Positions 9,422-37,400 of a stretch of 38,708 nt of DNA are shown piece by piece; within the stretch, counting starts at the first letter, position 1; every line of letters begins with the position of its first letter. The position numbers were made by a program, and so were the translations under genes. Below the pieces are notes generated by a model that made no database searches, was not told the origin of the DNA, and saw only the letters and a list, made by a program, of their open reading frames with translations. This DNA is from an archaeon (lineage in GTDB: Archaea; Iainarchaeota; Iainarchaeia; Iainarchaeales; GW2011-AR10): contig JAUSEO010000005.1 of NCBI GenBank assembly GCA_030651515.1, forward strand, positions 1 to 38,708, written 5' to 3'.

Positions 9422-10810
9422 TTACTTCCTGAATTTTTTTCCGTACTTTTCAATGTACTCTGTCTTTACCCTCTTGAGTTCTGATTCCGGGATTCCTGAC
9501 AACAGTTCCCAGCCAAGGTCGAGAGTTTGTTCAATTGTCCTGTTCTCGTTTTTCCCCTGCCTTATGAACCTGTTTTCAAACTCCTGTGCAAATTTCAAAA
9601 ATTTTTTGTCAATTTCGGAGAGCGCTTCTTCCCCCACAACAGCACTTAGGCTCCTTAAATCCCTGCCTTCTGCATAGGAAGCGTAAATCTGGTCAGCCAC
9701 TCCGCGGTGGTCCTCGCGTGTCTTTCCTTTCCCGATTCCAAGGTTCATGAGCCTTGAAAGGCAAGGCAAAACGTCAATTGGCGGGTAGATTCCTTTTCTG
9801 TGCAGGTCGCGGCCTACAACAATCTGCCCCTCTGTTATGTAGCCAGTGAGGTCTGGGATTGGGTGTGTGATGTCATCAGATGGCATTGAAAGGATTCCAA
9901 GCTGTGTCACGGAACCCTTTTTGCCTTTTATTACTCCTGCTCTCTCATAAATGGATGCAAGGTCAGTGTACATATAACCCGGGTATCCTCTTCTGCCTGG
10001 TACTTCCTTTCTTGCACCTGCAATTTCCCTTAGAGCTTCGCAATAATTCGTCATGTCTGTGAGAATGACAAGCACGTGCATGCCTTTCTCAAACGCGAGG
10101 TACTCTGCGGTCGTCAGAGCCATTCTTGGCGTGATGAGCCTTTCAACCGACGGGTCATCAGCAAGGTTCAAAAACAAAACGCTTTTTTCAAGTGCCCCGG
10201 TGCGCTCAAAGTCCTTGATGAAAAAGTTTGCTTCCTCGTGCGTGATTCCTATTGCGCCAAACACGACTGCAAAACTCTCAGACTCGTTCAAGACTTTTGC
10301 CTGCCGTGCAATCTGGACTGCCAGGTCATTGTGCGGCAAGCCGGCTCCGGAAAAAATCGGGAGTTTCTGCCCCCTTACAAGCGTGTTGAGCCCGTCAATC
10401 GTGCTTATCCCTGTTTGTATGAATTCTTCGGGCTTTGCCCTTGAAACCGGGTTGATTGCCGCGCCGATTATGTCAACCCTTTCTTTTGCAATTATTGCCG
10501 GGCCATTGTCACGCGGTTCCCCCAAACCATTGAATACGCGTCCAAGCATTTCCTCTGAAACGCTTAGCTTTATTGTCTCTCCAAGAAACCTTACCTTTGT
10601 TGCATGGGTGTCAAGGCCTGTGGTTGTTCCAAACACCTGCACGACCGCAAGCCCCTTGGATGTTTCAAGCACCTGGCCTTTCTTTTTTTCGCCGTTTGGG
10701 AGAACAACTTCAACTAGCTCGTTGTAAGCTGCTTTTTCAACTTTGTCCACAAAGACAAGCGGGCCTTCAACGCTTCTGACTGTCTGGTATTCTTTCAGCA
10801 TTTTTTTCAC
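9422..10810 (-). CDS. atpB: A/V-type ATP synthase subunit B
   Basis: 462 aa. Conserved [42 protein letters not shown] and [14 protein letters not shown]. 4-nt overlap with atpA. Confidence 0.97.
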
Positions 10811-12567
10811 CTTTCCGCACTCTTTGCCAAAGAATCAAACTCTGATTCAATCTCGTTTGAAATCTCTTTTGCCTTTTTGTCAACGTCGCTTTCCGGGATT
10901 TCCTTGAACCTGGAAATTTTTTCCTTTGCTTTGAGGCCCCTTAGTGACTTTAACTGCACTCCGGCGTCAATTGCATGCTCTGCTTTTTCGTGGAACTTCA
11001 TAATCAATCCAAGGAGCATGTATTGCTTGTGGAGTGAAGAATAAGTGTCCACCTCATGATATGCTGACTGCTGCAGGAAATCCTCCCGAATCATTTTTGC
11101 AGCGCTTAAAACCTCCTGTTCTTTTTCCGGCAAAGCGTCAGGGCCAACAAGCTGTACTATTTCCTGTAACTCTGACTCTTTTTGCAGTATTGCCATGGCA
11201 TTTGTCCTCATTGCAACAAAATCGCTTGAAACATTGTTTGCGTAAAACTCTCCAAGCGTGTCCAAATAAAGTGAATAGCTTTTGAGCCAGTTGATTGCAG
11301 GAAAGTGCCTTCTTTGCGCAAGCTTTGCGTCAAGTGCCCAAAAAACCTTTGTGACACGCAGTGTATTTTGGGAGACTGGTTCGCTTATGTCCCCGCCCGG
11401 AGGCGACACTGCCCCAATTGTGCTCACGCTTCCCTCGCGGCTGTCTTGCCCAATGCATACAACTCTTCCGGACCTTTCATAAAATTCTGCAAGCCTTCTT
11501 GCAAGGTATGCCGGGTATCCTTCCTCTCCTGGCATTTCTTCAAGGCGGCCGGAAATTTCCCTCATTGCCTCTGCCCACCTTGAAGTAGAGTCAGCCATTA
11601 ATGCAACGTCGTAGCCCATGTCCCTGTAATACTCTGCAATCGTTATTCCAGTGTACACGGAGGCTTCCCTTGCCGCAACAGGCATGTTTGAAGTGTTTGC
11701 AATAAGCACTGTCCTCTCCATGAGTGGTTTTCCACTCTTTGGGTCAACGAGTTCGGGGAACTCTGTCAACACTTCTGTCATTTCGTTTCCCCGCTCTCCG
11801 CAACCCACGTAGACTATGACGTTTGCGTCGCTCCACTTTGCAAGCTGCTGCTGTGCAACAGTTTTTCCTGAACCAAAAGGGCCTGGGATTGCTGCTGCAC
11901 CGCCTTTTGCTATCGGGAAAAAAGTGTCAAGAATCCGCTGGCCGGTAATAAGCGGGATTGTTGGGGCAAATTTTCTCGCGTATGGGCGCGGGGTCTTGAC
12001 GTTCCATTTGTGCATGAGTGAAAGCTTGTGGGTTGTTTTCCCGTCCTTGAGCACGCACACTGTTTCTTCTACAGTGAATTTTCCCGAACTAATTGATTCA
12101 ACTGTCCCCTTCATTCCGGGCGGCACCATTATTTTGTGTTCAATGATGTTTGTTTCCTGCACGGTTCCGATTACGTCGCCGGCTCCGAGTGCCGCTCCTT
12201 TTTTTGCTTTCGGTGAAAACTCCCACTTTTTTTTCCTGTCCAGGGCATTTGCAACGACTCCCCTTTTGATGAAGTCGCCTGACTCTGCCTTGATTGCTTC
12301 AAGTGGCCGCTGGATTCCGTCATAAATTGACTTCAACAGGCCCGGCCCAAGCTCAACGCTTAAAGGAAGGCCGGTGTTTTCAATCTTTTCACCAGGCCTT
12401 AAACCTGACGTGTCCTCGTAAACCTGTATCGTGGCCTTGTCATCGTTTAGCCTGATTATTTCCCCCAAGAGCCTTTCCTCCCCGACTCTCACGAGGTCAT
12501 GGATTTTTGCACCCTGCATTTTTTCCGCAACAACAACTGGCCCTGAAATCTTGAACAGTTCTCCCAT
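10807..12567 (-). CDS. atpA: A/V-type ATP synthase catalytic subunit A
   Basis: 586 aa. Walker [10 protein letters not shown], plus [15 protein letters not shown] and [22 protein letters not shown]. No intein. Confidence 0.97.
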
Positions 12568-18131: not shown

Positions 18132-18245
18132 TAGCTTTCTTTTTTGGCATAAAGCGTAAGCCCGGGTTTGCCGAAGCAACCCCGGGGATGCAATAAAAGG
18201 TATTTGTGAAGGGGTGTTTTTAAGGGTTGCTTTTTTCCTTAAAAA

Positions 18246-18358
18246 AGCCTCCGGTGGGACTCGAACCCACAGCCTGCGGTTAGTTTGCCACTGGAAAAAC
18301 ACGAGAATTGCCGAATAATAGTTACAAAACCGCTGCTCTGCCATTGAGCCACGGAGGC
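18246..18358 (-). tRNA. tRNA-Thr(TGT) with 41-nt intron after position 37
   Basis: Hand fold: acceptor GCCTCCG/CGGAGGC, D arm GCTC-AATGGCA-GAGC, anticodon stem GCGGT/ACCGC, loop TTTGTA|intron|A, T arm GTGGG-TTCGAGT-CCCAC, discriminator T. The splice sites lie in 3-nt bulges around a TTTG/CAAA helix (BHB). Confidence 0.85.
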
Positions 18359-18434
18359 GTGAATTTTTCACCCTCTATTTTTTTGGGCAAAGAAATGTTT
18401 TTTAACCCCGTTTTCCACCATTATTTTTGCGGGC

Positions 18435-19169
18435 ATGAAAGAAACACTTTTTATGGCGCTGGTCTTGACAGCGCTTTTTGGGTGCACCCAGAACAACCTG
18501 CAAGAGGCAAGCGAAATGGCGTCTGAAATGCAGAAAGTAACCTTTGTGGCAAAAGACAATGTAACGATTTACGCCAATTACTGGAAAGCCGAATCCAGCC
18601 GTGCCGTAATCCTCGTCCACCAGTTCAACAGCTCCAAAGAAGCATACACAGGCTTAGCCAAGCTCCTCAATGAAGATGATTATGGCGTGCTTGCACTTGA
18701 CCTGCGCGGGCACGGGGAAAGCCGTGCACAGGGTTCGCTTGCAAACCCGGCTTACCTCTCCGACAAAGACTTCCAGGACATGCACCTTGACCTGAGTGGT
18801 GCGCAAAAATTTCTCTCAGAAAAAGCCTACACTGGTTTTTTCATTGTCGGCTCATCCATTGGGGCAAACCTTGCGGTAACTTACCCGTTTGAAAACAGTG
18901 GCTTCAAAGCCGCAGTAGCACTTTCTCCAGGCGAAGACTTCAAGGGCCTAAAGCCCCTTTCAGCGGCCCGCGAAACAAATGTTCCGACAATGATTGTCGC
19001 AAGCAAAGACGATGCTTATTCTTTTGAATCAGCAGAAAAAATCCATGCCGCGATGACTGGCGAAAAAAAACTCGTCGAACTTGAAAACGCGGGGCACGGC
19101 ACATTCATGCTCCAAAACAATCCAAATCTTTCAAGCCAAATACTTGAATGGTTCAAAGAGCACGCATGA
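18435..19169 (+). CDS. alpha/beta hydrolase lipoprotein
   Basis: 244 aa. Lipobox LTALFGC, nucleophile elbow GSSIG, Asp in SKDDAY, His in NAGHGTF. Confidence 0.85.
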   Translation: MKETLFMALVLTALFGCTQNNLQEASEMASEMQKVTFVAKDNVTIYANYWKAESSRAVILVHQFNSSKEAYTGLAKLLNEDDYGVLALDLRGHGESRAQGSLANPAYLSDKDFQDMHLDLSGAQKFLSEKAYTGFFIVGSSIGANLAVTYPFENSGFKAAVALSPGEDFKGLKPLSAARETNVPTMIVASKDDAYSFESAEKIHAAMTGEKKLVELENAGHGTFMLQNNPNLSSQILEWFKEHA

Positions 19170-20000
19170 CTATTTTTTTTCCTTTGCCTTAGTGAATGCC
19201 TTAACTGCATCCATTAACTCCATTGGAATTGCAATGACAACCGTGTTTGAAGCAGTGGGTCCAAGCCCGTCAATTGTCTGAAGCGTCCTTAACTGCATTG
19301 CACCCGTGGACTTTGCCATTATTTCTGCTGCCTTTGAAAGGTTTTCAGCAGCCATCCTGTCACCCTCAGCCTTGATAATCGTGGCCCTTTTTTCCCTTTC
19401 CGAGGATGCCTGTCTTGACATGAGCCTCTTCAAATCCTCTGGCATGTCAATGTCCTGCATTTTTATGTTCGTGACTTTTATCCCCCACGCACCGCTTTCC
19501 CTGTCCACGATTTTTTCTATCTGTTCCCCGACCTGCTGCCTCTCGGCAAGAACCTCGTCAAGAGTCATCTGCCCAATGACGTCCCTCAACGCTGTTTGCG
19601 CGTACTGTGAAACCGCGTACTCGTAATCCTGCACGTTGATGATTGCCTTTGAAGCATCCTCCACCTTGAAGTAAAGCACCCCGTTGATTGTCACGGGGAC
19701 ATTGTCCTTGGTTATCGCCTGCTGGCTTGGAATGTCAATTGTAAGCACGCGCATGTCAATTATTTTCACTGCTTCAACGATTGGAAAAATAAAGTTCAAC
19801 CCCGGCTGGAGTGTTTTGTCCAGTTTCCCAAGCGAAAAAACAACGCCTGTCTGGTACTGCTGGATAATCCTTATAGAAAGGAAAACCAAAAAAACCAGGT
19901 AAACCAGCAAAACAACCGGCCCCATGACCGGCACGAAAAACACTGCAACTGCAACAAGCAAAAAAACAAACCCGACAATCCCCTTCACGGCCCCATTCAT
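19170..20000 (-). CDS. SPFH/band-7 (stomatin/slipin) family protein
   Basis: 276 aa with an N-terminal TM region. Conserved QQAITKDNVPVTINGVLYFKV, ALRDVIGQMTLDEVL and an Ala/Glu-rich coiled coil. Its stop abuts the hydrolase stop with no spacer. Confidence 0.9.
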   Translation of the reverse strand: MNGAVKGIVGFVFLLVAVAVFFVPVMGPVVLLVYLVFLVFLSIRIIQQYQTGVVFSLGKLDKTLQPGLNFIFPIVEAVKIIDMRVLTIDIPSQQAITKDNVPVTINGVLYFKVEDASKAIINVQDYEYAVSQYAQTALRDVIGQMTLDEVLAERQQVGEQIEKIVDRESGAWGIKVTNIKMQDIDMPEDLKRLMSRQASSEREKRATIIKAEGDRMAAENLSKAAEIMAKSTGAMQLRTLQTIDGLGPTASNTVVIAIPMELMDAVKAFTKAKEKK

Positions 20001-20161
20001 GAAAAAATAAAGGGATTTAACTTCTTAAAAAACAATCTATCCAGCCTTCAGCTTGGTTTAAGCATATTTTTATTTTTTGCCAGCTAGTGAAGGCAGTTTC
20101 AGTTGTAAACAAAATGTTAACAACTGGTTTTACTTTCCTTTTAGAACCCGCTATTTATGGG

Positions 20162-20599
20162 TTATTTTAAAGAAATCTGATTTAATTTTATTTTAGTTCC
20201 TTTTTTCCATAAGTCTTTTCTCATAGCAATAGCACTTTCCATAAAATTGTATTCTGATGGTTCAATCATAAATTGCTTGAATTTTCTTAACACCCCATCA
20301 GAAGCATACAGGATAGAGTTGTAGTAAAATTCTGTTAATTTTTCCATGGCATATTTTTTAATCTCTTCTTTCTTCTTCAAACTTTGCATGTGTGGGTCGT
20401 GAATATTGAATTGATTCATATTTTCTGGTTTTAGAACACATCTCATGAATACCAAAGTAGACCTGTATTTGTCTTCGTTGAGACTCTGAATTCTCAATTC
20501 GGTTTCCTTTCTTTGATTCAAAAGATGTTGAATGTACCCGCCAATAATCCCCCCAAGCCCTAATAAACTTAAAATAGAAATTATTGTTTGCAAATCCAT
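20162..20599 (-). CDS. hypothetical protein with N-terminal TM helix (island cargo)
   Basis: 145-aa ORF in an AT-rich region. No known motif. Preceded by repeat copy C1. Confidence 0.5.
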   Translation of the reverse strand: MDLQTIISILSLLGLGGIIGGYIQHLLNQRKETELRIQSLNEDKYRSTLVFMRCVLKPENMNQFNIHDPHMQSLKKKEEIKKYAMEKLTEFYYNSILYASDGVLRKFKQFMIEPSEYNFMESAIAMRKDLWKKGTKIKLNQISLK

Positions 20600-20633
20600 A
20601 TTTTCACACTTGTTTTATTGACTTATTTAATAA

Positions 20634-20693
20634 GGAATGCCCCTATTGGGCTCATCACGACACAGTTAAAGTCAGGGATAATTGTTGCCCTAA
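20634..20693. repeat. conserved intergenic element, copy C1 (partial)
   Basis: GGAATGCCCCTATTGGGCTCATCACGACACAGTTAAAGTCAGGGATAATTGTTGCCCTAA aligns with the corresponding halves of C2 and C3. Confidence 0.8.
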
Positions 20694-20749
20694 TATGTGT
20701 TCTACTTGATCAAGTGTGGCCAGAAATACTTTTAACCTTAATGAATTCG

Positions 20750-21595
20750 TCAGCCCTTTAGTCTTTTTCTTTTGTTTGATTCCGGCTCACCCAGATAGTT
20801 TTCCTGTGTGCTGATTTTTTCACCAGATTCAACTTCAAGTCTTTTTCTGGCGTCCCCAGCAATTTGTCCACCCAGCTTGGCGGCTTTTTTGTTTTGAATA
20901 AAGCCTTGCGCGTCCTTGCTTTTCGCGATTTTGGTGGTGGAGGCTTCGCCAAGCATGGTGAAAATGAGTTCCAAATCATTCATGTGGTCACGCAGGTTTT
21001 CTTTTGAAAGTTTTTTGAATTTCTTGTATTCCTCAACGGTTTTGCCAAAAGTTGCCTGGCTTATTTCGTTGGTCAAAATCGCGTATTCTTTGCCCTCTTG
21101 GACGCTTCGCTTTTTCCATTCATCCGTCAATTCCTGCCGGACCGCTATTCCACGAACCCTTTTTTCAATCCACTCGTCCGAATAGCCTTTTGCCTTGTAA
21201 AGTTCTTTCATGCGCGCTTGTGACAATTCCGGGTTTTCGATTTCCTGGACGCGCTCGTAACCGACTTGGGCGAGCCAGCGCTTGAAGGGTTCGGCTTTTG
21301 GCGAGGGAATTGACTGGATTATCCTGAACATTGATTTGGTATTAGTGCAGTCTGTTTCTCTTAATTTCCCATCCTCTGCAGACAATTTCAACTGTACGAT
21401 TTTATCGTACGGTTCAAAACCTTCTTCTGAAAGCTTGATTTTTAAGTCAGACCAATATCTCTTTGGAATTGTACTGGCTTCCAATGCAGTTACAACATCT
21501 ATTACAGAAAAATACCATTCATTCTCATGCCATGCCCGCCTGATTTTTTTGTCCTGAAAAACAACCAACGCATTTTGGTTTTCCACTTCAATCAC
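20750..21595 (-). CDS. Bro-N domain / antirepressor-like DNA-binding protein
   Basis: 281 aa. N-terminal IRRAWHENEWYFSVIDVVTAL is Bro-N-like. The central SPKAEPFKRWLAQVGYERVQEIENPEL...GYSDEWIEKRVRGIAVRQELTDEWKKR is typical of this phage-associated family. Confidence 0.75.
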   Translation of the reverse strand: MIEVENQNALVVFQDKKIRRAWHENEWYFSVIDVVTALEASTIPKRYWSDLKIKLSEEGFEPYDKIVQLKLSAEDGKLRETDCTNTKSMFRIIQSIPSPKAEPFKRWLAQVGYERVQEIENPELSQARMKELYKAKGYSDEWIEKRVRGIAVRQELTDEWKKRSVQEGKEYAILTNEISQATFGKTVEEYKKFKKLSKENLRDHMNDLELIFTMLGEASTTKIAKSKDAQGFIQNKKAAKLGGQIAGDARKRLEVESGEKISTQENYLGEPESNKRKRLKG

Positions 21596-21642
21596 CGTGC
21601 CTTTTAGTTATGAAATAGCCTTTGGCCCGCCCACATAAGATA

Positions 21643-21750
21643 TTTGTATTCTTGTTTAAAAGCAGTTTCAGGCCTCGTTGCCGGTGTGAATCTTGAAGTG
21701 CCCATTGGGCTTATACAACAGTTAAAGTCATGGGATAAAACAGTGGCCCG
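21643..21750. repeat. conserved intergenic element, copy C2
   Basis: 84 of 94 aligned positions are identical to C3, plus one 1-nt indel (hand count over 21643..21737). Starts 5 nt from the stop of the 92-aa ORF and ends 48 nt before the Bro-N start. Confidence 0.85.
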
Positions 21751-21754
21751 GGTT

Positions 21755-22033
21755 TCACTTTCTCACATTTGCTATTGCAAGTCGGGTTGCTTCTCTTATA
21801 ATTGCCCTTACGGTTATGGTGCTGCTTTTCATGCGCCTTCCCCAACCGAAATTCTGCAAGGCCTTTTCAATTGTCGCGTCTGACAGCAGTTCCTTTTCCA
21901 ACGTCAAAATGCCTGCCTGCTTGCCCGAGTCTTCTGCGAGGCGGTAAAGGCGGATGATTGCCTCTGGCTGTTTCATCCCGGAGAAGCTGTTCCACAATTG
22001 CATTACTTCCTCATCAGTTGCCATATTTTCCAA
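21755..22033 (-). CDS. hypothetical protein (island cargo)
   Basis: 92-aa ORF, no recognisable motif. Confidence 0.4.
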   Translation of the reverse strand: MENMATDEEVMQLWNSFSGMKQPEAIIRLYRLAEDSGKQAGILTLEKELLSDATIEKALQNFGWGRRMKSSTITVRAIIREATRLAIANVRK

Positions 22034-22124
22034 GCCTCCTTTGCCGGGCTTTGCTTGCCGCGCATGTCATCATAATAACCCGAATTAGCAGTTGAAGACA
22101 AGGGATTTCCGTTTTTGGCCTTGT

Positions 22125-22136
22125 TTTTCTAACTGT
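22125..22136. repeat. direct repeat TTTTCTAACTGT, left copy
   Basis: Exact 12-mer also at 24399..24410. The match is 15 of 17 when extended to 22120..22136 versus 24394..24410. Confidence 0.8.
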
Positions 22137-22173
22137 GGCGTTATATGCCTCAAGCGAAGTTTGAACCAATTTT

Positions 22174-22392
22174 TCATGATGTTAGCGTTGCTGTTTGTAT
22201 TACTTTTTTTGTTTCGCCTGAAAAAATCTTTTTTGCATTAGCGATTTCCATTGCAAGTATTTTGCCATCTTTTGAAATGTCCAGTACTATCCCATTTGAC
22301 AGTTCAATGCTTTTCCAATAGTCACCTTCAAATAATTGTATTCCAAGAATATCCTCTTCCTTGTCGTACCATTTTTGTTTTTTCATTTCCAC
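22174..22392 (-). CDS. DUF2283-family protein (antitoxin-like partner)
   Basis: 72 aa. YDKEEDILGIQLFEG...GIVLDISKDGKILAMEI matches the DUF2283 pattern. Starts 4 nt after the upstream gene's stop. Confidence 0.7.
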   Translation of the reverse strand: MEMKKQKWYDKEEDILGIQLFEGDYWKSIELSNGIVLDISKDGKILAMEIANAKKIFSGETKKVIQTATLTS

Positions 22393-22395
22393 TCA

Positions 22396-22632
22396 CTAAT
22401 CCAAATAGTATGCTGTAATCAATTTAATTGTTTGGCTTCCGATTTTTCTGAAAACAACTTTTAACCGCTTTCCGTTTTGTGGAATAACCATAATCACATT
22501 CAAGGCATTGTCCTGGGTTTTGTCTTTTTCAAAATCCTTTGGATTGCTTAATGCGTATTCAATCATGTATTGTTCGATATTTCTGCGGAATTTTTTCTTT
22601 TTCTTCCAATGAAAAGATTCAATTATTTCCAA
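22396..22632 (-). CDS. DUF4258-family protein (toxin-like), proposed TTG start
   Basis: 78 aa from a TTG at 22632, preceded by AAAGGGGAA: LEIIESFHWKKKKKFRRNIEQYMIEYAL... fits the DUF4258 N-terminus. The track ORF extension to 22845 runs through repeat C3 and the IS target duplication. Confidence 0.6.
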   Translation of the reverse strand: MEIIESFHWKKKKKFRRNIEQYMIEYALSNPKDFEKDKTQDNALNVIMVIPQNGKRLKVVFRKIGSQTIKLITAYYLD

Positions 22633-22671
22633 TTGAGTTCCCCTTTTTCCGCATTCGTTTGTAATAATTTG

Positions 22672-22779
22672 TTTGTGTTCTTGTTTAAAAGCGGTTTCAG
22701 GCCACAGTGCCGGTGCGAATCTTGAAATGCTCATTGGGCTTATGCGACAGTTAAAGTCAGGGATATTTTGTTGCCCTAA
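22672..22779. repeat. conserved intergenic element, copy C3
   Basis: See C2. Ends about 40 nt upstream of the proposed DUF4258 start. Confidence 0.85.
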
Positions 22780-22847
22780 AAGACATCTATTGTGAACCTT
22801 GTTTGAAAACAATTTTAAGTATATTGAAGATTCGTGATTTTCCAAAC

Positions 22848-23834
22848 GGCTCTGTAGAAATCCTTTTTAAATAGGGATAAATAGAGGGTTTTCCCTCTAT
22901 CTATTGTGATTCCCTATGAATGTTTTGTACCCTGTAAAATTTAATAGTTTCTATCAACTAGTCCAAAGCGTTTTGAACGAAATCAAGTTCCCGTACAGGT
23001 TCTCCGTGTTCTCCAAGAGAATGTATGGGAACTTTGTACACGTTTTTCTTCTCGTCTACAAAGAGAGATTGAACGTCTCGTATAGGCGTTTTGTACAAAT
23101 AGCCAGCGAAGTAAACCTTGAAAGAACATTGGGAATTAAACGAATTCCCCATTTTACTACCATCCAAAAATTCTTACAGCGCATACCAAAGAAACTTTTC
23201 GAGTCAATGGTCAAAGCCTGCCGCAGACTACTTAACCTCAAAAAAGTTACCGGAATCATCGACGGAACAGGTTTTTCAAACACCAATCCTTCACATTATT
23301 ACCAGCAAAGAGTTGATGGTGTAAAAGTCAAAAACTACACTAAAACCGTGTTATTAACGGATAAAAAAACAAAACTCGTGTTGAACATAAAAACTCACAG
23401 TGACAATGCTAGTGAGACTCTGGACTTTATACCTCTTGTACAAGACCTCAATGATACGTTGTCACAGGTTTTGGGTGATAAGGGCTATGACTCCATGAAA
23501 AATAGGGAATACTGTTGGAACAATGGAATCTCCGTACAAATTCCATTGAGAAACTTTAAACAAGCGGGATACAAGTACGGTCTACAACCCTATTTGAAAA
23601 AGAAACGACGCATAGCTTCACAATTATTTGACCAAAACGAGTATAGGTACAGGGTATTAGTTGAATCCGTGAACTCTGCCATTAAACGGACTCTGGGTTC
23701 CTGGGTAAACTCCCGTAACCCTGGTTCCCAACAAAAACAAGTAATTTTGAAAATCCTAGCTTACAACATAGAAGTAATCAACCGAACAATAAAACTCACC
23801 ATATTTATAACCTAAACAGGAATTCTACACCGCC
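22848..23834 (+). mobile_element. IS4/IS5-superfamily insertion sequence (IS903-like architecture), apparently intact
   Basis: 987 bp. Left inverted repeat GGCTCTGTAGAAATCCTTTTTA versus the reverse complement of the right end GGCGGTGTAGAATTCCTGTTTA, 18/22 matches. Flanked by the 9-bp direct repeat TTTCCAAAC at 22839..22847 and 23835..23843. Single transposase ORF. Confidence 0.8.
22916..23815 (+). CDS. DDE transposase (IS4/IS5 superfamily)
   Basis: 299 aa. Candidate DDE residues lie in IDGTGFS, VLGDKGYDS and the Y-2-R-3-E-6-K signature YRYRVLVESVNSAIK. Confidence 0.85.
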   Translation: MNVLYPVKFNSFYQLVQSVLNEIKFPYRFSVFSKRMYGNFVHVFLLVYKERLNVSYRRFVQIASEVNLERTLGIKRIPHFTTIQKFLQRIPKKLFESMVKACRRLLNLKKVTGIIDGTGFSNTNPSHYYQQRVDGVKVKNYTKTVLLTDKKTKLVLNIKTHSDNASETLDFIPLVQDLNDTLSQVLGDKGYDSMKNREYCWNNGISVQIPLRNFKQAGYKYGLQPYLKKKRRIASQLFDQNEYRYRVLVESVNSAIKRTLGSWVNSRNPGSQQKQVILKILAYNIEVINRTIKLTIFIT

Positions 23835-23885
23835 TTTCCAAACGAAATGTTTTAATCTGTGTTAAGCTTATTTGTGTAGGGAATT

Positions 23886-24362
23886 ATGAGTAAGCCTATT
23901 CGAAGACCTGTTTCTGAAGGCCGACAAGGAGCTTCAAAGCCGATTGCATTTGTTAAGAATCCAGTAACTGGTGTAGACATTCCAGTTTTCTATCGCAACC
24001 TTGAGAACAGAATTACAAGTGATACACGGGGCGCTCCTGCTGCAAGGAATCCAAATGATAGGCGGATTCGGCAAGTGGGTGATTTTTTCAGTCAAGCACG
24101 TGTGAGCAAGGTGCATCATCAGCCACGTGTTAGAATGCTTCTTGAAAAATTTCAAAAGCAACGCTTGGCATCAGGTGACACCAGACCAATTACCTGGTAT
24201 CCCAAGATTGTTGTAATGACTGAAGAAGAATTTAACCAATTGGACCCTAAGGGGAAAAAAAATTTTGTTGTAGTCAAAGAGGCAGGCTTTGTTTACTTTT
24301 TTAATCGTCGGGCGCCTGGCGGCGGTGGGAAAGTAATCACAAAAAAATACAAAAAACCTTAA
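23886..24362 (+). CDS. hypothetical basic protein (island cargo)
   Basis: 158-aa Arg/Lys-rich ORF, no recognisable motif. Only plus-strand cargo gene besides the transposase. Confidence 0.5.
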   Translation: MSKPIRRPVSEGRQGASKPIAFVKNPVTGVDIPVFYRNLENRITSDTRGAPAARNPNDRRIRQVGDFFSQARVSKVHHQPRVRMLLEKFQKQRLASGDTRPITWYPKIVVMTEEEFNQLDPKGKKNFVVVKEAGFVYFFNRRAPGGGGKVITKKYKKP

Positions 24363-24398
24363 AACAGACAAGAACAACTGGATTAAATCTGCGCTTTG

Positions 24399-24410
24399 TT
24401 TTCTAACTGT
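24399..24410. repeat. direct repeat TTTTCTAACTGT, right copy
   Basis: Lies 9 nt from the 3' end of tRNA-Glu. Partner at 22125..22136. Confidence 0.8.
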
Positions 24411-24419
24411 AATGTGAAG

Positions 24420-24494
24420 TGCCCCGAGCGGGATTTGAACCCGCGTCGATGCCGTGAGAGGGCATAGTCCTTGACCGGGCTAGACTATCGGGGC
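24420..24494 (-). tRNA. tRNA-Glu(CTC)
   Basis: Hand fold: GCCCCGA-TA-GTCT-AGCCCGGTCAA-GGAC-T-ATGCC-CTCTCAC-GGCAT-CGAC-GCGGG-TTCAAAT-CCCGC-TCGGGGC-A. 75 nt, no encoded CCA. Confidence 0.9.
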
Positions 24495-24547
24495 GGCCAC
24501 ACGATTTTCTCTAGAAAAAGGTTTATTAAAACAAAGTTGTGTGTTCC

Positions 24548-24946
24548 TCAAAATTCACGTATTTCCTCAAGCACAAACCGCAAGTTTGCGTCCTTGTCAA
24601 GCACTATCTGGTCAATTCCTTTTTCAGCGTAAACGTTATCCACATAGATTGCCCAGTAGTGGCTCTGTCCAGCCTCCACGCCTGCGATGGATTCAACGAA
24701 AAAACCAAACTCGTACTGTTTGCCTTTAACCTCTGTTGCCTCTCTGAGTGCGTCAAGTGCAATTGTCCCCTTTTCCACTTCCACTGTTTTTTCAAGGATG
24801 TTGTTTTCGCCGTCGTTGACGGCAAAAGAAACTTTCACTTGGGAAATAGTTTCCTGGCTGCCAGCTTGAGGTGCTTGCTGCTGGATTTGCTGTGTGCACC
24901 CTGCAAGCAAAAAAATTACGAAAAGAAAAAATAATGCATTCTTCAT
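24548..24946 (-). CDS. DUF4430-like secreted lipoprotein
   Basis: 132 aa. Lipobox LLAGC. GTIALDALREATEVKGKQYEFGFFVESIAGVEAGQSHYWAIYVDN fits the DUF4430 pattern. Confidence 0.65.
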   Translation of the reverse strand: MKNALFFLFVIFLLAGCTQQIQQQAPQAGSQETISQVKVSFAVNDGENNILEKTVEVEKGTIALDALREATEVKGKQYEFGFFVESIAGVEAGQSHYWAIYVDNVYAEKGIDQIVLDKDANLRFVLEEIREF

Positions 24947-25016
24947 GTAGGAAAACAGGTTTGGTTAGGTATTTTAATTTTCTTTTTTATGGTCACAACC
25001 GGTATCCGCGGGGGCA

Positions 25017-26246
25017 TTATCCGATTGTGACATTCATTGTGGCTTTGAGTATGCTTGAGTTTGGCCAAAAAGACCTTACCTTGAATGAACTTTCTGGCGC
25101 CGTGAATTCAATAGTCTTATTCTCGCCAGGTTTTACAACCCCCGTGTTGAAGTGGTCGCTTCTGATGTCTTCCCCGCCCCACGAAACCCCGCTTGTCGGA
25201 ACGTTGAAAGTTATTCTCACAAGGTCCCCTGGAGAAACAGTTATCTCATTCGGGTCGAACTTTGAATCGTTTGCAAGAATCGTGAATTCTTTTGTTTCCG
25301 GCTCCTGTTGTGCATCCCCTGTTGCAGGCATTATTGTTATTGATTTTTCTTCAGAGTAAGCGTGCTTCCCTTCAACCATTGCGTGCACGCGGAAAAAAAG
25401 CGTTGTTTCTTCCAAAACTTCCGGCAAGGCAAAACCCACTCCAAACTGGCCATCAGTTGTTCTGCCGGTCAGGACATCGCTTGCGTTTGCGTATTCCTCA
25501 AAGTTCTCGCCATGCCCGCCAACCAAGTCCCAGTGCACTGCAGTGTGTTCAACTAATTTGTCTTCACTGCTTGCAACGGTCCATGCTAAAAAGAAATTTT
25601 CATCAGAAACACCTGCTGGCTCGAAAATGACCTGTTCAATCCTTGGCTTTGCAAGCTCGTCTTCAACTTCTCTCCCTTCTTCCCTCATTTTTTCCATGAA
25701 TTCTCCAAATTGTTTTTCGCCAAACAGCTTCACCATGTTTGGTGCAAAAACGTATTTTCCATCCTGCATGGCAATTGAGTAAAGGTCAAAGTAAAGCACC
25801 ATGTTGGTTTCAGAATCCTTTGTGATTCCAAAATTGTTTTCAACCAAAAATTCTTTTTGAGGCAGTTCCACCTGTATGGTTTCACCATCTGCAAGCAAAA
25901 CCTCTATTTTTGAAACAGTGGCTTTCAGGCCGGTAAATGCTTCCGATTCAAGTTCAGTTGACCCAAGCCCCCCTTTTTCACCTTCAAGCGAAAGGACATC
26001 ATAAATCTTTTTGTTGACAGTAAGGCCAAGTTCGTGCCCATCAGCACCGATTGCCTTGATGTTTTCAAAACCAACCATTATTTGTGAAACACCAGAGTTC
26101 TCGTTGTAGGATTCCTGGCTGGAAATGGAAAGAGAAAGCGTTCCTTTTTCTTTGGCTTGCGGTGGTTCCTGTGTCCCTGGTTGCTGCGTTGCACAGCCTG
26201 CAAAAAAAAGACCCAAAACCAAAAAAAGCGCCAAGAAACTCTTCAT
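25017..26246 (-). CDS. secreted lipoprotein with DUF4382-like N-domain and Cys-free cupredoxin-like C-domain
   Basis: 409 aa. Lipobox FFAGC. The C-terminal KEFTILANDSKFDPNEITVSPGDLVRITFNV...KPGENKTIEFTAPE has a cupredoxin-type strand pattern, but the only Cys in the protein is the lipobox Cys. Confidence 0.55.
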   Translation of the reverse strand: MKSFLALFLVLGLFFAGCATQQPGTQEPPQAKEKGTLSLSISSQESYNENSGVSQIMVGFENIKAIGADGHELGLTVNKKIYDVLSLEGEKGGLGSTELESEAFTGLKATVSKIEVLLADGETIQVELPQKEFLVENNFGITKDSETNMVLYFDLYSIAMQDGKYVFAPNMVKLFGEKQFGEFMEKMREEGREVEDELAKPRIEQVIFEPAGVSDENFFLAWTVASSEDKLVEHTAVHWDLVGGHGENFEEYANASDVLTGRTTDGQFGVGFALPEVLEETTLFFRVHAMVEGKHAYSEEKSITIMPATGDAQQEPETKEFTILANDSKFDPNEITVSPGDLVRITFNVPTSGVSWGGEDIRSDHFNTGVVKPGENKTIEFTAPESSFKVRSFWPNSSILKATMNVTIG

Positions 26247-26334
26247 TCAAAAACCACCTAATTGTTGGGTAAAAAAAGCATTTTAAGCTTAATTTAGGCC
26301 TACTCAACGCTTTGGAAAAACTCTTTTTGTTTTT

Positions 26335-27045
26335 TCAAGAATCTTTTTCTGGAGTTTGGCCTATGTGCTCTTCAAAAGCCGTTCGCGGGGGTGTTTTCAG
26401 GGCTCTAAAGCCCAATCTGACAATCAATGCCGTGATTGCCAATGCCAAAAAAACCAGGCCATAAGGCCGCACGTCAAGCCCCTTGCCTGGTTTTATTTCA
26501 AGGACAAGGAAATGCACTATTGCAAAAAACAATGCCACATAGCCGGTTGTCTGGAGAAGTTTCCATTTTATGTAACCCATTTTTTTCACGGCCTCAGCCG
26601 TCGAGGTGATGGCCATGAGGAAAAAAATTCCAAATGCCAAAACCGCGGCAACAAAACCAATCCACTTGGGGTTTGCAAAAAGCATTTTGTTTGGGTCAAG
26701 GCCATAAATCACGAAAAGCGAATACGCTGAATGCAAAATTGCAAACAGGAATCCTGCAATCCCGGCATCCTTTCTGTACAGCAAGAATTTTCCAAAAGTT
26801 TTCGGAAACATTTTTGACAACGGGCCGACAACAAGCGCGCATGAAATCAAGCCGATTGCAGCCAGTGCCGCAACTTTGTTCAGCTCCGACCACGATTTCG
26901 CCGCGTCAGAAAAAAAAATTACAGCCAAAAGCTTTTGCGGGACAAGCGTTTTTGTCTCCTTGTCATATGCTGTGTAAAAAAACAAGAGTGACAAAAAAAC
27001 AGCGGCGACAAAAACAAACGAGCCAGCCCTGGCAGACAGAGTCAT
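26335..27045 (-). CDS. ferric-reductase-like / MsrQ(YedZ)-like heme-b transmembrane protein
   Basis: 236 aa. YRKDAGIAGFLFAILHSAYSL and WKLLQTTGYVALFFAIVHFL. Same length and motif layout as 146..856. Confidence 0.6.
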   Translation of the reverse strand: MTLSARAGSFVFVAAVFLSLLFFYTAYDKETKTLVPQKLLAVIFFSDAAKSWSELNKVAALAAIGLISCALVVGPLSKMFPKTFGKFLLYRKDAGIAGFLFAILHSAYSLFVIYGLDPNKMLFANPKWIGFVAAVLAFGIFFLMAITSTAEAVKKMGYIKWKLLQTTGYVALFFAIVHFLVLEIKPGKGLDVRPYGLVFLALAITALIVRLGFRALKTPPRTAFEEHIGQTPEKDS

Positions 27046-27080
27046 TGCAGAGAAACAAATCCAAACTGATTTTTAAATAA

Positions 27081-27153
27081 TGCCGGTGGGCAGATTTGAA
27101 CTGCCGGTCCCCACATTATGAGTGTGGTGCTTTGACCGCTAAGCTACACCGGC
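27081..27153 (-). tRNA. tRNA with CAT anticodon (elongator Met or Ile2)
   Basis: Hand fold: GCCGGTG-TA-GCTT-AGCGGTCA-AAGC-A-CCACA-CTCATAA-TGTGG-GGACC-GGCAG-TTCAAAT-CTGCC-CACCGGC-A. It has G1-C72 rather than the initiator A1-U72 I recall for archaea. Confidence 0.9.
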
Positions 27154-32149: not shown

Positions 32150-32242
32150 AGCTCTTGGCGGGAATTGAACCCGCGATCCCGTCCTAATCAGCCTTCCTTA
32201 TGTAGATACCAAGGACGTGCGATACCACTTCGCTACAAGAGC
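32150..32242 (-). tRNA. tRNA-Thr(GGT) with 21-nt intron after position 37
   Basis: Hand fold: GCTCTTG-TA-GCGA-AGTGGTA-TCGC-A-CGTCC-TTGGTA|21 nt|A-GGACG-GGATC-GCGGG-TTCAATT-CCCGC-CAAGAGC-T. Discriminator T, as in the other tRNA-Thr. Confidence 0.85.
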
Positions 32243-32282
32243 CTAATAACCCTAATACTTGCCTTAAAAAATCCTTAAATTA

Positions 32283-32382
32283 TGTCAAACCACGAAAGTT
32301 TTTAGGCTTATTGGCGTGGTTTGACAGATAACACCTCGCAAAGTGAAGCTTTGCGAGGCATCGCAAATGCAAAAACATTTGC
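32283..32382. other. three consecutive perfect hairpins between hisS and tRNA-Thr
   Basis: Three stems: TGTCAAACCACG-N20-CGTGGTTTGACA (32283..32326), CCTCGCAAAG-tgaag-CTTTGCGAGG (32334..32358) and GCAAATG-caaaaa-CATTTGC (32363..32382). Confidence 0.75.
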
Positions 32383-32423
32383 AATGAACCATGGAAAATT
32401 TTCCGAATTATTTTCTTGGTTTG

Positions 32424-33647
32424 TTATAGTTTCTTCAGTTTTTCAAGCTCGTTAAAACGGATTTTTTCCTGCTTTCCGGTCGCCATGTTTTTGAGGTTGA
32501 ATGCCTTTTCTTTTTCCTCGTTTTCACCAAAAACAATGGCAAATGGAATCTTTTTTCCAGAGGCAAATTCAAGGCTTTTTGAAACGTTCCTGTTCATCAA
32601 GTCGATTTCCGTGCTTATGCCAAGTGCCCTGATTTTTTGGCAAAGCAAAAGCGCAGGCTCGAAAAAATCTTTGGAAAAAGGCGCAATGAAAACTTTTGTC
32701 CCATTCGGGTTTTTTTCTTTTACAAGCTCCATTACACGCTCAACCCCAAAGCTAATCCCGACAGCCGGGACTTTTGCCCCGCCCATGTCTGAAATAAGGT
32801 TGTCATAGCGCCCGCCGCCCCCGATGCTTGGGCCATCGCTTTTCACTTCAAACACATTCCCCGTATAGTACTCGAGGCCGCGTGCAAGCGAAAGGTCAAA
32901 CTCCAAAAATTCTTCAACCCCTGTTTTTTTCGCCAAGCTAAACAATTCATTTATCTCCTTCAAGCCTTCTGATGAGGGGATAATTTTTTGGAGTTCCTTA
33001 ATCGAGCAGGAAAGTTTGGCAACGATTTCTGTTTTGATTTTCTTTTCCTTCAGTTCTTTTTCAACTTCTTTTGTCCCAATCTTGTCAAGTTTGTCCATGC
33101 AGCGGAAGCACTCTTTTGCCTGGTCTTTTTTAACTCCGCATGCAACCGCAAAGTCCTCCAGGAGCTTTCTGTTGTTGACTTTTATTTTCCCTTTCACTCC
33201 AAGCTTTTTGAGGACGTCAACTGCAATCAGCACGCATTCAAAGTCAGCAGAAACCAATGGCGAGCCAATGATGTCCGCGTCAGCCTGTGTGAACTCGCGC
33301 CACCTTTTTGCCTGTGGCCTGTCATAGCGCCACACTTGTGCAATCTGGTAGCGCTTGAAAGGCTTTTTGAGTGCAGGGTTTGATGCTACAACCCGTGCAA
33401 GTGGGACTGTGAGGTCAAACCGAAGGCCGATTTCGCGTCCGCCCTTGTCATTGAAAAAATAAATCTCATCCTTAATCGCTGTTCCGGCAGTGTCTTTTTT
33501 TGTAAGCGTTTCAAGCTCTTCAAGTGCAGGCGTCTGCAGTGGTTCAAAGCCGTAGGACTCAAAAACCTGCCTGCATGTGTCCTCGACAAACTGTTTTTTC
33601 CTTGCATTTTCTCCGACAAAGTCCTGCATTCCACGCACTGTTTTCAT
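32424..33647 (-). CDS. hisS: histidine--tRNA ligase
   Basis: 407 aa. RGMQDF, YQIAQVWRYDRPQAKRWREFTQADADIIG and GGGGRYDNLI are class II HisRS motifs. Confidence 0.95.
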   Translation of the reverse strand: MKTVRGMQDFVGENARKKQFVEDTCRQVFESYGFEPLQTPALEELETLTKKDTAGTAIKDEIYFFNDKGGREIGLRFDLTVPLARVVASNPALKKPFKRYQIAQVWRYDRPQAKRWREFTQADADIIGSPLVSADFECVLIAVDVLKKLGVKGKIKVNNRKLLEDFAVACGVKKDQAKECFRCMDKLDKIGTKEVEKELKEKKIKTEIVAKLSCSIKELQKIIPSSEGLKEINELFSLAKKTGVEEFLEFDLSLARGLEYYTGNVFEVKSDGPSIGGGGRYDNLISDMGGAKVPAVGISFGVERVMELVKEKNPNGTKVFIAPFSKDFFEPALLLCQKIRALGISTEIDLMNRNVSKSLEFASGKKIPFAIVFGENEEKEKAFNLKNMATGKQEKIRFNELEKLKKL

Positions 33648-37254: not shown

Positions 37255-37400
37255 CCAAAAAAAGCCTAACTATAGCAAACGGCAAAAATAATTCGGACAA
37301 ACAAAAGCCGTTTGATATCCTGTCAAACCACGTTAAAATACCGGGAAACTTTCCTGGTTTGGCATAGTTAAAACCAGTAAAAAAAAGAGTTGATTTTTGG

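Follow-up and report, generated by a model that had tools for sequence, protein, structure and literature searches.

How does the same piece of non-coding DNA come to stand in front of three unrelated genes within 2.2 kb of an archaeal genome? The locus that raises this question lies on contig JAUSEO010000005.1 (assembly GCA_030651515.1) of an uncultivated DPANN archaeon (Iainarchaeota/Diapherotrites-type), of which we analysed positions 1 to 38,708, hereafter the window. A reading of the sequence alone had described three copies of a conserved element (C1, C2 and C3), each directly upstream of a different minus-strand gene, and had offered as candidate explanations a shared promoter or operator, a cis-antisense small RNA, a cassette-junction recombination site, or remnants of a transposable element. 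The three copies, their single orientation and their positions were confirmed, as was the identity of the genes behind them: a 145-aa open reading frame (ORF), a Bro-N gene and a DUF4258 gene (Pfam; ORF list). In our judgement, the copies probably represent a promoter region reused between modules of integrated mobile DNA, of the type known as a putative mobile promoter (PMP).

Two modules upstream of unrelated genes

C2 (21635-21762) and C3 (22664-22790) are 86.4% identical across 103 nt by blastn (E 3.6e-30), and a repeat search of the window recovers the pair as an ungapped repeat of 86% identity (21635-21733 versus 22664-22762). The similarity that the sequence-only reading had noted is thus real, its figure of 84 out of 94 positions, or about 90%, being slightly generous; its positions for the two copies also hold, except that the similarity begins about 8 nt further left, at 21635 and 22664. 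Between C1 (20634-20693) and C3, identity is 86% over 50 nt (E 3e-9 to 5e-9), and between C1 and C2 it amounts to 83% over 41 nt (E ~3e-4). Alignment and blastn agree with the earlier description of this copy as one half of the element only, roughly 60 nt long, which is the gene-distal one, with loose similarity to C3 continuing for about 14 nt past the right end originally assigned to it (MAFFT alignment). Three runs are invariant across the copies, ATTGGGCT, ACAGTTAAAGTCA and GGGATA (MAFFT), and the TTTAAAA boxes that had been reported in C2 and C3 are present (Table 1). Searches with the copies by blastn and nhmmer found no fourth one in the 38.7-kb window. The gap between copy and start codon is 34 nt for C1 (ATG at 20599), 47-56 nt for C2 (GTG at 21595 or 21586) and 39 nt for C3 (TTG at 22632), and the copies cover approximately -32 to -176 relative to the start codons. 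They contain no coding sequence: in MAFFT and blastn comparisons alike, the similarity at the DNA level ends before every start codon.

The repeat is composed of two separable modules, a gene-proximal one of about 52 nt, which we call P, and a distal one of about 60 nt, D. The border between them is visible in L019, a contig from the metagenome-assembled genome (MAG) of a sister Iainarchaeum, where sequence homologous to C2 extends without interruption from within the Bro-N coding region across a leader of about 45 nt and the whole of P (88% over 182 nt, window 21507-21686), ending where P borders on D. C3 is 87% identical to the same stretch over 53 nt (22664-22716), and the P modules of C2 and C3 are 83% identical to each other. 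A contig from a second assembly, L018 (SRR27458547), whose Bro-N protein is 87% identical to that of the window, begins inside the P block, with the box 21 nt before the Bro-N ATG. Outside the window, P is therefore found upstream of Bro-N, 84-88% identical and contiguous with the gene, in the sister Iainarchaeum genome as well as in the second assembly, and more distant Bro-N loci have different upstream sequences. As its position before Bro-N in both L019 and L018 shows, P is the upstream sequence native to the Bro-N lineage of the window.

L019 carries P without D, and C1 carries D without P. As D is absent upstream of P in the former and stands alone in the latter, the two modules recombine separately, their breakpoints lying about 8 nt apart. 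Base composition adds to this picture: the GC content of D and P (0.40-0.47) is like that of Bro-N and of the host (0.43-0.44) and unlike that of the cargo behind C1 and C3 (0.31-0.33), so that the upstream block is foreign to those two genes.

The level of conservation itself calls for less explanation than had been thought. Identity among the copies is 73-86%, and intergenic DNA of the window genome is 78-88% identical to that of the sister species (blastn); the claim that conservation of about 90% in non-coding DNA demands a special explanation was thus overstated, since the copies are no more similar to each other than intergenic DNA is between sister species, and a recent duplication suffices, with no special constraint to invoke.

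Neither module was found to be widespread. A scan for the invariant 19-mer of D (ACAGTTAAAGTCA-N(0,1)-GGGATA) in IMG/VR, in 185,579 GTDB species representatives (sister MAG included) and in JGI metagenomes returned either nothing or chance matches without the rest of the element, a second D pattern, GACTTTAACTGT-N(3-9)-AGCCCAAT, is absent from IMG/VR, and D is likewise missing from 0.65 Mb of loci around Bro-N and SPFH homologues. For P, the pattern GCCTGAAANNNCTTTTAAACA-N(0,1)-GAA has one true match among the GTDB representative genomes, which is L019, and none in IMG/VR. In the regions up- and downstream of Bro-N homologues, comprising 10 archaeal loci (L009-L018) and 80 IMG/VR loci, D occurs in none and P, besides L019, only in L018. 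A blastn comparison of C3 with phage and plasmid records gave nothing relevant. As a side observation, the L018 contig, which is a Logan contig, starts exactly within P, as is typical of assemblers at a repeat, for which reason P, and perhaps also D, may be multi-copy in that genome.

Probable promoter reuse and its rivals

Among the candidates originally listed, the shared promoter or operator is the one that the data support: in its sequence as well as its spacing, the box agrees with those of other promoters in the window, and in two other assemblies P appears as the native upstream region of Bro-N. Inspection of the 80 nt upstream of 32 window genes revealed a TTTTAA(A/C) box 21-23 nt before many ATGs, which is the geometry expected for leaderless archaeal mRNAs, and the TTTAAAA box, which on the minus strand reads TTTTAAAC, has the same sequence and spacing as these host boxes. 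On that strand P reads GGCCTGAAAC-N-GCTTTTAAACAAGAA, a purine-rich stretch resembling a B recognition element (BRE) followed by the TTTTAAAC TATA box (in closer view GAAAC-N-GC TTTTAAAC, with the purine-rich GAAAC where a BRE belongs); on its plus-strand side the box is flanked by T-rich DNA, and its orientation therefore fits the minus-strand genes. P thus combines an A/T-rich box, a purine-rich BRE 5' of it, the spacing used by the host and conservation together with the served gene in orthologous loci (L019, L018). These features argue that P is an active promoter, with predicted transcription starts near 21632 and 22661 on the minus strand and predicted leaders of about 45 and 30 nt, each of which would carry a GGTGA or GGGG Shine-Dalgarno-like motif. 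The gene behind C1 has an A/T box of its own, TTATTAAATAA, directly after D, and D itself is therefore no core promoter.

The leader of Bro-N deserves a separate remark. It holds a short ORF of 10 codons in the window (21604-21636, minus strand) and one of 12 codons in L019 (86-124), the ATG of each lying 17 nt after the TATA box. Given that in L018 the ATG of Bro-N itself follows the box at 21 nt, the leader of about 45 nt looks like an insertion that displaced an original leaderless start.

How could such a region have come to be shared? According to the explanation that we favour, the TTTTAAAC TATA box in P would recruit TBP and TFB and start minus-strand transcription some 20-25 nt downstream. 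P would have arrived with the Bro-N (PDC-S13-like) gene as its own core promoter, and a copy of D plus P, cut near the predicted transcription start, would have been placed before the DUF4258/DUF2283 pair (C3). D, which adjoins the TATA box on its upstream side (about -40 to -105), would have been copied together with P in C3 and alone in C1, before the 145-aa gene with its own box. Recombination among modules of related mobile DNA accumulated at a tRNA-Glu hotspot is the most likely way in which the copies spread; as a net effect, cargo genes that are AT-rich and were acquired independently would be expressed from, or beside, a common upstream region. We favour promoter reuse because the genes behind the copies are unrelated and share no coding sequence, because the region is an island beside tRNA-Glu that is absent from three relatives and contains a relic tRNA, an IS5 element, a toxin-like pair and a candidate defence gene (described below), and because the readings based on RNA structure, on integron attC sites and on transposable elements fail. 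Within this scheme, D would be a neutral passenger of the duplication or else a site at which a regulator binds upstream of the TATA box.

Several considerations weigh against this reading. The case for promoter activity in P is one of sequence and spacing. The core promoter does not need D, as L019 has P without D and C1 the reverse. With three copies, selection and recent duplication are indistinguishable, and the copy count refers to 38.7 kb of the source genome. Finally, D is placed exactly at the borders between segments with a GC content of 0.31, 0.43-0.48 and 0.32, in one orientation and about 1 kb apart, an arrangement that would suit a junction or recombination site as well.

This last point leads to the main rival of promoter reuse, which assigns to D the role of a recombination or junction site, following a logic like that of chromosomal integron repeats or tandem att sites. 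Cassettes of about 1 kb would then be inserted or exchanged, with one D left per border, through a site-specific recombinase supplied in trans or through Campbell-type homologous crossover between D copies. The D copies are indeed direct repeats in the same orientation, 1056 and 1029 nt apart between short ORFs, as are the sites of integrons and of clusters of attC sites lacking integron integrases (CALINs), for which at least two same-orientation sites less than 4 kb apart between short ORFs are a necessary, not a sufficient, condition; the breakpoints of D and P are separate (D only in C1, P only in L019), the tRNA-Glu hotspot has a relic att-like repeat, and a toxin-like pair and a candidate defence gene are cargo typical of cassette arrays. 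As to the integron-type junction that had been proposed, however, the tests for attC sites failed: a regular-expression search of 20000-24400 on both strands found no pair of R'' (RYYYAAC) and R' (GTTRRRY) within 30-130 nt, nor a single such motif in any copy, and an attC-like imperfect hairpin is not indicated on either strand, the minimum free energies being no better than those of shuffles (z -0.65 to +1.7). Nor is there a conserved dyad with a spacer, GCCCATTGGGC in C2 having become GCTCATTGGGC in C3 and GCCCCTATTGGGC in C1. No tyrosine-recombinase domain occurs among the 20 window ORFs scanned with Pfam, and the IS5 transposase is the only recombinase-type gene that the Pfam and NCBIfam scans of window ORFs found. 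Furthermore, the terminal cassette, that of the 145-aa gene, is not bounded by D at its outer end, the sole recognisable integration border is marked by a relic tRNA fragment and not by D, and D was present in no other genome or metagenome searched. We therefore regard a junction role for D as unlikely. One could also speculate that D is the junction of a non-integron cassette system of DPANN archaea, in which units of about 1 kb with one or two genes, namely a candidate defence gene, a toxin-like pair and a membrane protein, are stacked head to tail beside tRNA-Glu and exchanged at a repeat of about 60 nt that lacks attC features, a more specific proposal to which we assign a low probability.

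It is very improbable that the copies encode a small RNA, be it a plus-strand cis-antisense or divergent transcript from the TTTAAAA box or a minus-strand leader RNA. The weak preference that had been expressed for a structured plus-strand transcript did not survive folding: ten constructs on both strands, folded with RNA parameters, were no better than dinucleotide shuffles (z -0.65 to +1.7), and the RNAalifold consensus reached -3.8 and -2.2 kcal/mol with 0 compensatory pairs, in a covariation test to which three sequences give almost no power. The two hairpins reported as conserved do exist as 4-bp stems, in which the sole change is one C-to-T that in C3 gives a G-U pair on the plus strand, but as structures they are supported neither by folding nor by RNAalifold. 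The comparison with Rfam that had been suggested gave nothing over the copies, at gathering thresholds or at E<=10. The near symmetry of the TATA-like box would allow transcription in the plus direction; in that direction, however, the sequence upstream of the box is T-rich, with the purine-rich BRE-like stretch on the side that serves the minus strand, C1 has no box at the equivalent position, and no oligo-T terminator is shared after D. One stop-free frame per strand crosses D, a weak point in favour since this is expected by chance in short sequences, and the stop-free frames of the three copies, concatenated, had 0 matches at E<=10 among 5.8 billion predicted proteins. A coding reading was rejected, as the differences between C2 and C3 are mostly non-synonymous in every open frame and a 1-nt indel breaks the plus-strand frame. 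Readings as C/D-box small RNAs, origin-recognition boxes or terminators were dropped by eye, their motifs not being kept in all copies.

Could D instead descend from another element at the locus? The plus strand of C1 aligns to the 3' end of tRNA-Glu and its flank (AATGCCCCTATTGGGCTCATCACGACACAGTTA versus AATCCCGCT-CGGGGCACTTCACATTACAGTTA; shuffle p ~0.01) and to the relic copy of the tRNA (p ~0.005), as would be expected if D were a decayed, inverted tRNA-Glu 3' end with flank, the remnant of an old attachment site. For C2 and C3, however, p ranges from 0.016 to 0.74, nothing is secure after twelve comparisons, the orientation is opposite both to the tRNA and to the real relic, and the letters in common reduce to GGGC and ACAGTTA; as the likeness is limited to C1, we treated it as chance and consider such an origin extremely unlikely. 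We give hardly any credence to the proposal that the copies are remnants of miniature inverted-repeat transposable elements (MITEs) or of insertion sequence ends with an outward promoter, for which the precedent is the existence of mobile promoter-bearing MITEs such as the Correia elements (PMC3575422). An IS5-family element does lie 55 nt from C3, yet its ends (GGCTCTGTAGAAATCC, GGCGGTGTAGAATTCC) are unrelated to D or P, the borders of the copies show neither terminal inverted repeats nor target duplications, and the proximal border of C2 is not the end of an element, because homology to L019 runs on into the gene. With only three copies, all in one 2.2-kb stretch, and nothing similar among phage or plasmid records, this candidate is largely refuted.

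The island and its genes

The repeat region lies in an island (Table 1). The window is collinear on both sides with L020, a contig of the same sister MAG as L019 (GCA_016198165.1), over 18231-20035 and 24396-27093 (88% and 76% identity), and the 4.36 kb between has no counterpart there. In L020 this slot is occupied by a 99-aa gene and TauE, and in the short contigs L022 and L023 (SRR12113383/4) TauE is directly upstream of the SPFH gene, whose product in the window, an SPFH/slipin protein, has relatives with 91-93% identity. The GC content of the island is 0.39, compared to 0.44 in the flanks, and it is a mosaic, with 0.31 in the 145-aa gene, 0.43 in Bro-N, 0.48 in the 92-aa ORF and 0.32-0.33 in the DUF4258/DUF2283 pair. 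At the tRNA-Glu border, 26 flank bases are conserved, and this flank is kept in L020. The relic consists of T-loop, acceptor end and flank (73% over 48 nt), with a local alignment score of 45 versus 15.5 +/- 2.6 for 2000 shuffles, and constitutes the direct repeat of a tRNA 3' end at the far border that is left by elements targeting tRNA genes. It marks an old attachment site, by which the island is divided in two, and the presence of a tRNA 3' half inside the island means that no fewer than two steps at a tRNA hotspot went into its assembly; the part adjoining the tRNA contains C3, and the older part C2 and C1. Despite these signs of successive integrations at tRNA-Glu, no integrase gene is left among the ORFs searched (Pfam on 20 window ORFs; NCBIfam).

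Table 1. Positions of the repeat modules and of the features of the surrounding island
Feature	Position	Strand	Evidence
C1, module D only	20634..20693	-	alignments; blastn to C3 86% over 50 nt
A/T box of the 145-aa gene itself (TTATTAAATAA on minus strand), 23 nt before ATG, directly downstream of C1	20623..20633	-	sequence; spacing as in host promoters
C2, module P, BRE/TATA-type putative core promoter, box 21655-21661, contiguous with Bro-N leader	21635..21686	-	88% to L019 over 21507-21686
C2, module D, ending 4 nt beyond the stop codon of the 92-aa ORF	21687..21750	-	alignments; no counterpart upstream of P in L019
C3, module P, box 22684-22690, before the DUF4258 pair	22664..22716	-	87% to L019 Bro-N upstream region over 53 nt
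C3, module D, last ~14 nt loosely like C1	22717..22793	-	alignments, blastn
Genomic island with all three copies, between SPFH/slipin gene and tRNA-Glu, 4.36 kb	20036..24395	.	blastn synteny with L020, L022, L023 ends at 20035, resumes at 24396
145-aa cargo gene, one N-terminal hydrophobic segment, GC 0.31	20162..20599	-	ORF list
Bro-N / DinD-like gene, PF02498	20750..21586	-	Pfam E 2.4e-11; PADLOC PDC-S13 E 8e-120, full-length
92-aa ORF, GC 0.48	21755..22033	-	ORF list
Relic tRNA-Glu 3' half + 26-nt flank, between DUF2283 and 92-aa ORF	22118..22167	-	direct repeat of 24393-24441
DUF4258 (22396-22632) + DUF2283 (22174-22392) pair, GC 0.32-0.33	22174..22632	-	Pfam
IS5-family insertion sequence, 16-nt imperfect inverted ends	22848..23834	+	NCBIfam IS5 E 9e-45
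tRNA-Glu(CUC) at island border	24419..24494	-	ARAGORN, Rfam

Among the cargo, the Bro-N / DinD-like protein is the best connected. It has more than 8000 homologues, with 72-87% identity in Woese-, Nano-, Aenigm-, Micr- and Diapherotrites-type archaea, where it invariably occurs as a lone gene and its surroundings are unrelated (loci L009-L019, L025-L104), genes on 80 IMG/VR contigs share 46-70% identity with it, and along its full length it matches PDC-S13, a PADLOC candidate defence gene. The DUF4258 domain (PF14076) was assigned at E 2.3e-5, exactly at the curated cut-off, and the DUF2283 gene is next to it. The 145-aa protein has no match in Pfam, NCBIfam, PHROGs or PADLOC, and the 92-aa ORF none in these or in a PDB sequence search, which was also empty for the protein of a 158-aa island ORF. 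As candidates for a cognate regulator, the 92-aa, 145-aa and 158-aa proteins were set aside, the family searches (Pfam, NCBIfam, PHROGs, PADLOC) having given only a far-sub-threshold NCBIfam match of the 158-aa ORF to NrdD (E 0.003). The IS5 element is complete, with a 299-aa DDE transposase, and separates C3 from the 158-aa ORF within a divergent intergenic region. The 9-bp target duplication that flanks it, TTTCCAAAC, is located at 22839-22847 and 23835-23843; the element is a later insertion and, by its looks, a recent one.

A few observations concern the window at large. The A subunit of the V-type ATPase in the sister MAG (L020, 12146-15424) has 1092 aa and contains intein-splicing and LAGLIDADG domains, and that of the window (10807-12567) has 586 aa and is intein-free, which amounts to a presence/absence polymorphism between close relatives. 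Two tRNA genes, at 18246-18358 (113 nt) and 32150-32242 (93 nt), are recognized by Rfam and not by ARAGORN; both presumably contain introns, consistent with archaeal origin. These two genes and the names borne by homologues of the window's proteins place the window in a DPANN archaeon of the Iainarchaeota/Diapherotrites type. Pairs of inverted repeats at 32275-32431 and 37268-37372 (53 nt at 77%, 33 nt at 82%) bracket about 5 kb that hold histidyl-tRNA synthetase, tRNA-His, tRNA-Leu, a Na/Ca exchanger and TrkH. Near gene starts, GTCAAACCACG-like words occur in both arms, which may represent regulatory sites used in common or else the two ends of a segment that was inverted.

Comparison with known systems

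Archaeal activators, for instance of the Ptr2 or Lrp type, bind upstream of BRE/TATA, and D, at about -40 to -105 from the predicted start and common to neighbouring genes, occupies a comparable position, as if the genes formed a possible small regulon. The partial palindrome of D, however, is kept neither in sequence nor in spacing across the copies, and the orthologous Bro-N promoter in L019 stands without D.

The attC sites of integrons, such as the Vibrio cholerae repeats, and of archaeal CALINs (PMC9668308) share with this locus the same-orientation repeats about 1 kb apart between short unrelated ORFs, and a toxin-like pair in the cargo. Here, in contrast, R''/R' core sites and an imperfect-palindrome hairpin are absent, IntI does not occur among the scanned ORFs, and half of the repeat is a putative promoter belonging to one of the genes. 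In addition, the repeat lies 5' of the promoter of each gene and is not the 3' end of a cassette, and the terminal gene has none.

A further parallel is offered by the phage 'morons' and the mosaic-boundary sequences of temperate phages and prophages, reportedly described by Hendrix, Juhala and colleagues. Morons are independently acquired, compositionally deviant genes in mobile DNA, each with its own promoter, and at the mosaic boundaries of phages short conserved intergenic stretches can serve homologous recombination between modules. The cargo genes of the island are likewise independently acquired, compositionally deviant and located in mobile DNA, each with an upstream promoter, in this case a predicted one. 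They differ in that the island is without phage structural or replication genes, and no terminator partner was identified downstream of the genes.

The closest counterparts are the PMPs, defined as stretches of 50 nt or more, 80% or more identical to each other, that precede genes which are not paralogous, and surveyed in the complete genomes available as of 2011 by Matus-Garcia, Nijveen and van Passel (2012; PMC3575422). As there, similar non-coding sequence precedes non-paralogous genes in one genome, and as in this island most PMP families are pairs or small groups (PMC3575422). Judged by that definition, C2 and C3 have 86.4% identity over 103 nt, and C1 and C3 have 86% over 50 nt; the genes served are Bro-N, DUF4258 and a family-less protein, with similarity confined to the repeat; and the sequence belongs to no known insertion sequence or RNA family, with no Rfam match at E<=10, unrelated IS5 ends and no phage or plasmid match. 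The present case differs in coming from an uncultivated DPANN archaeon with a predicted archaeal BRE/TATA promoter, in that all copies are clustered in a single 4.4-kb island, and in that the donor gene of one module, Bro-N, is identifiable from orthologous loci.

If promoter reuse is the correct explanation, the locus would be a clean and datable instance of it in an archaeon with a reduced genome, in which the core promoter of a widely transferred candidate defence gene (Bro-N / PDC-S13) was copied before a separately arrived, AT-rich toxin-like pair, and would illustrate one route by which compositionally deviant foreign genes come to be expressed once they have entered a DPANN genome. If anything in the block is new, it could only be D, in the role of a regulator site or of a cassette junction. 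Compared with the PMPs, the island would thus constitute no new class of element, and would add an archaeal case to a phenomenon catalogued so far mostly in bacteria.

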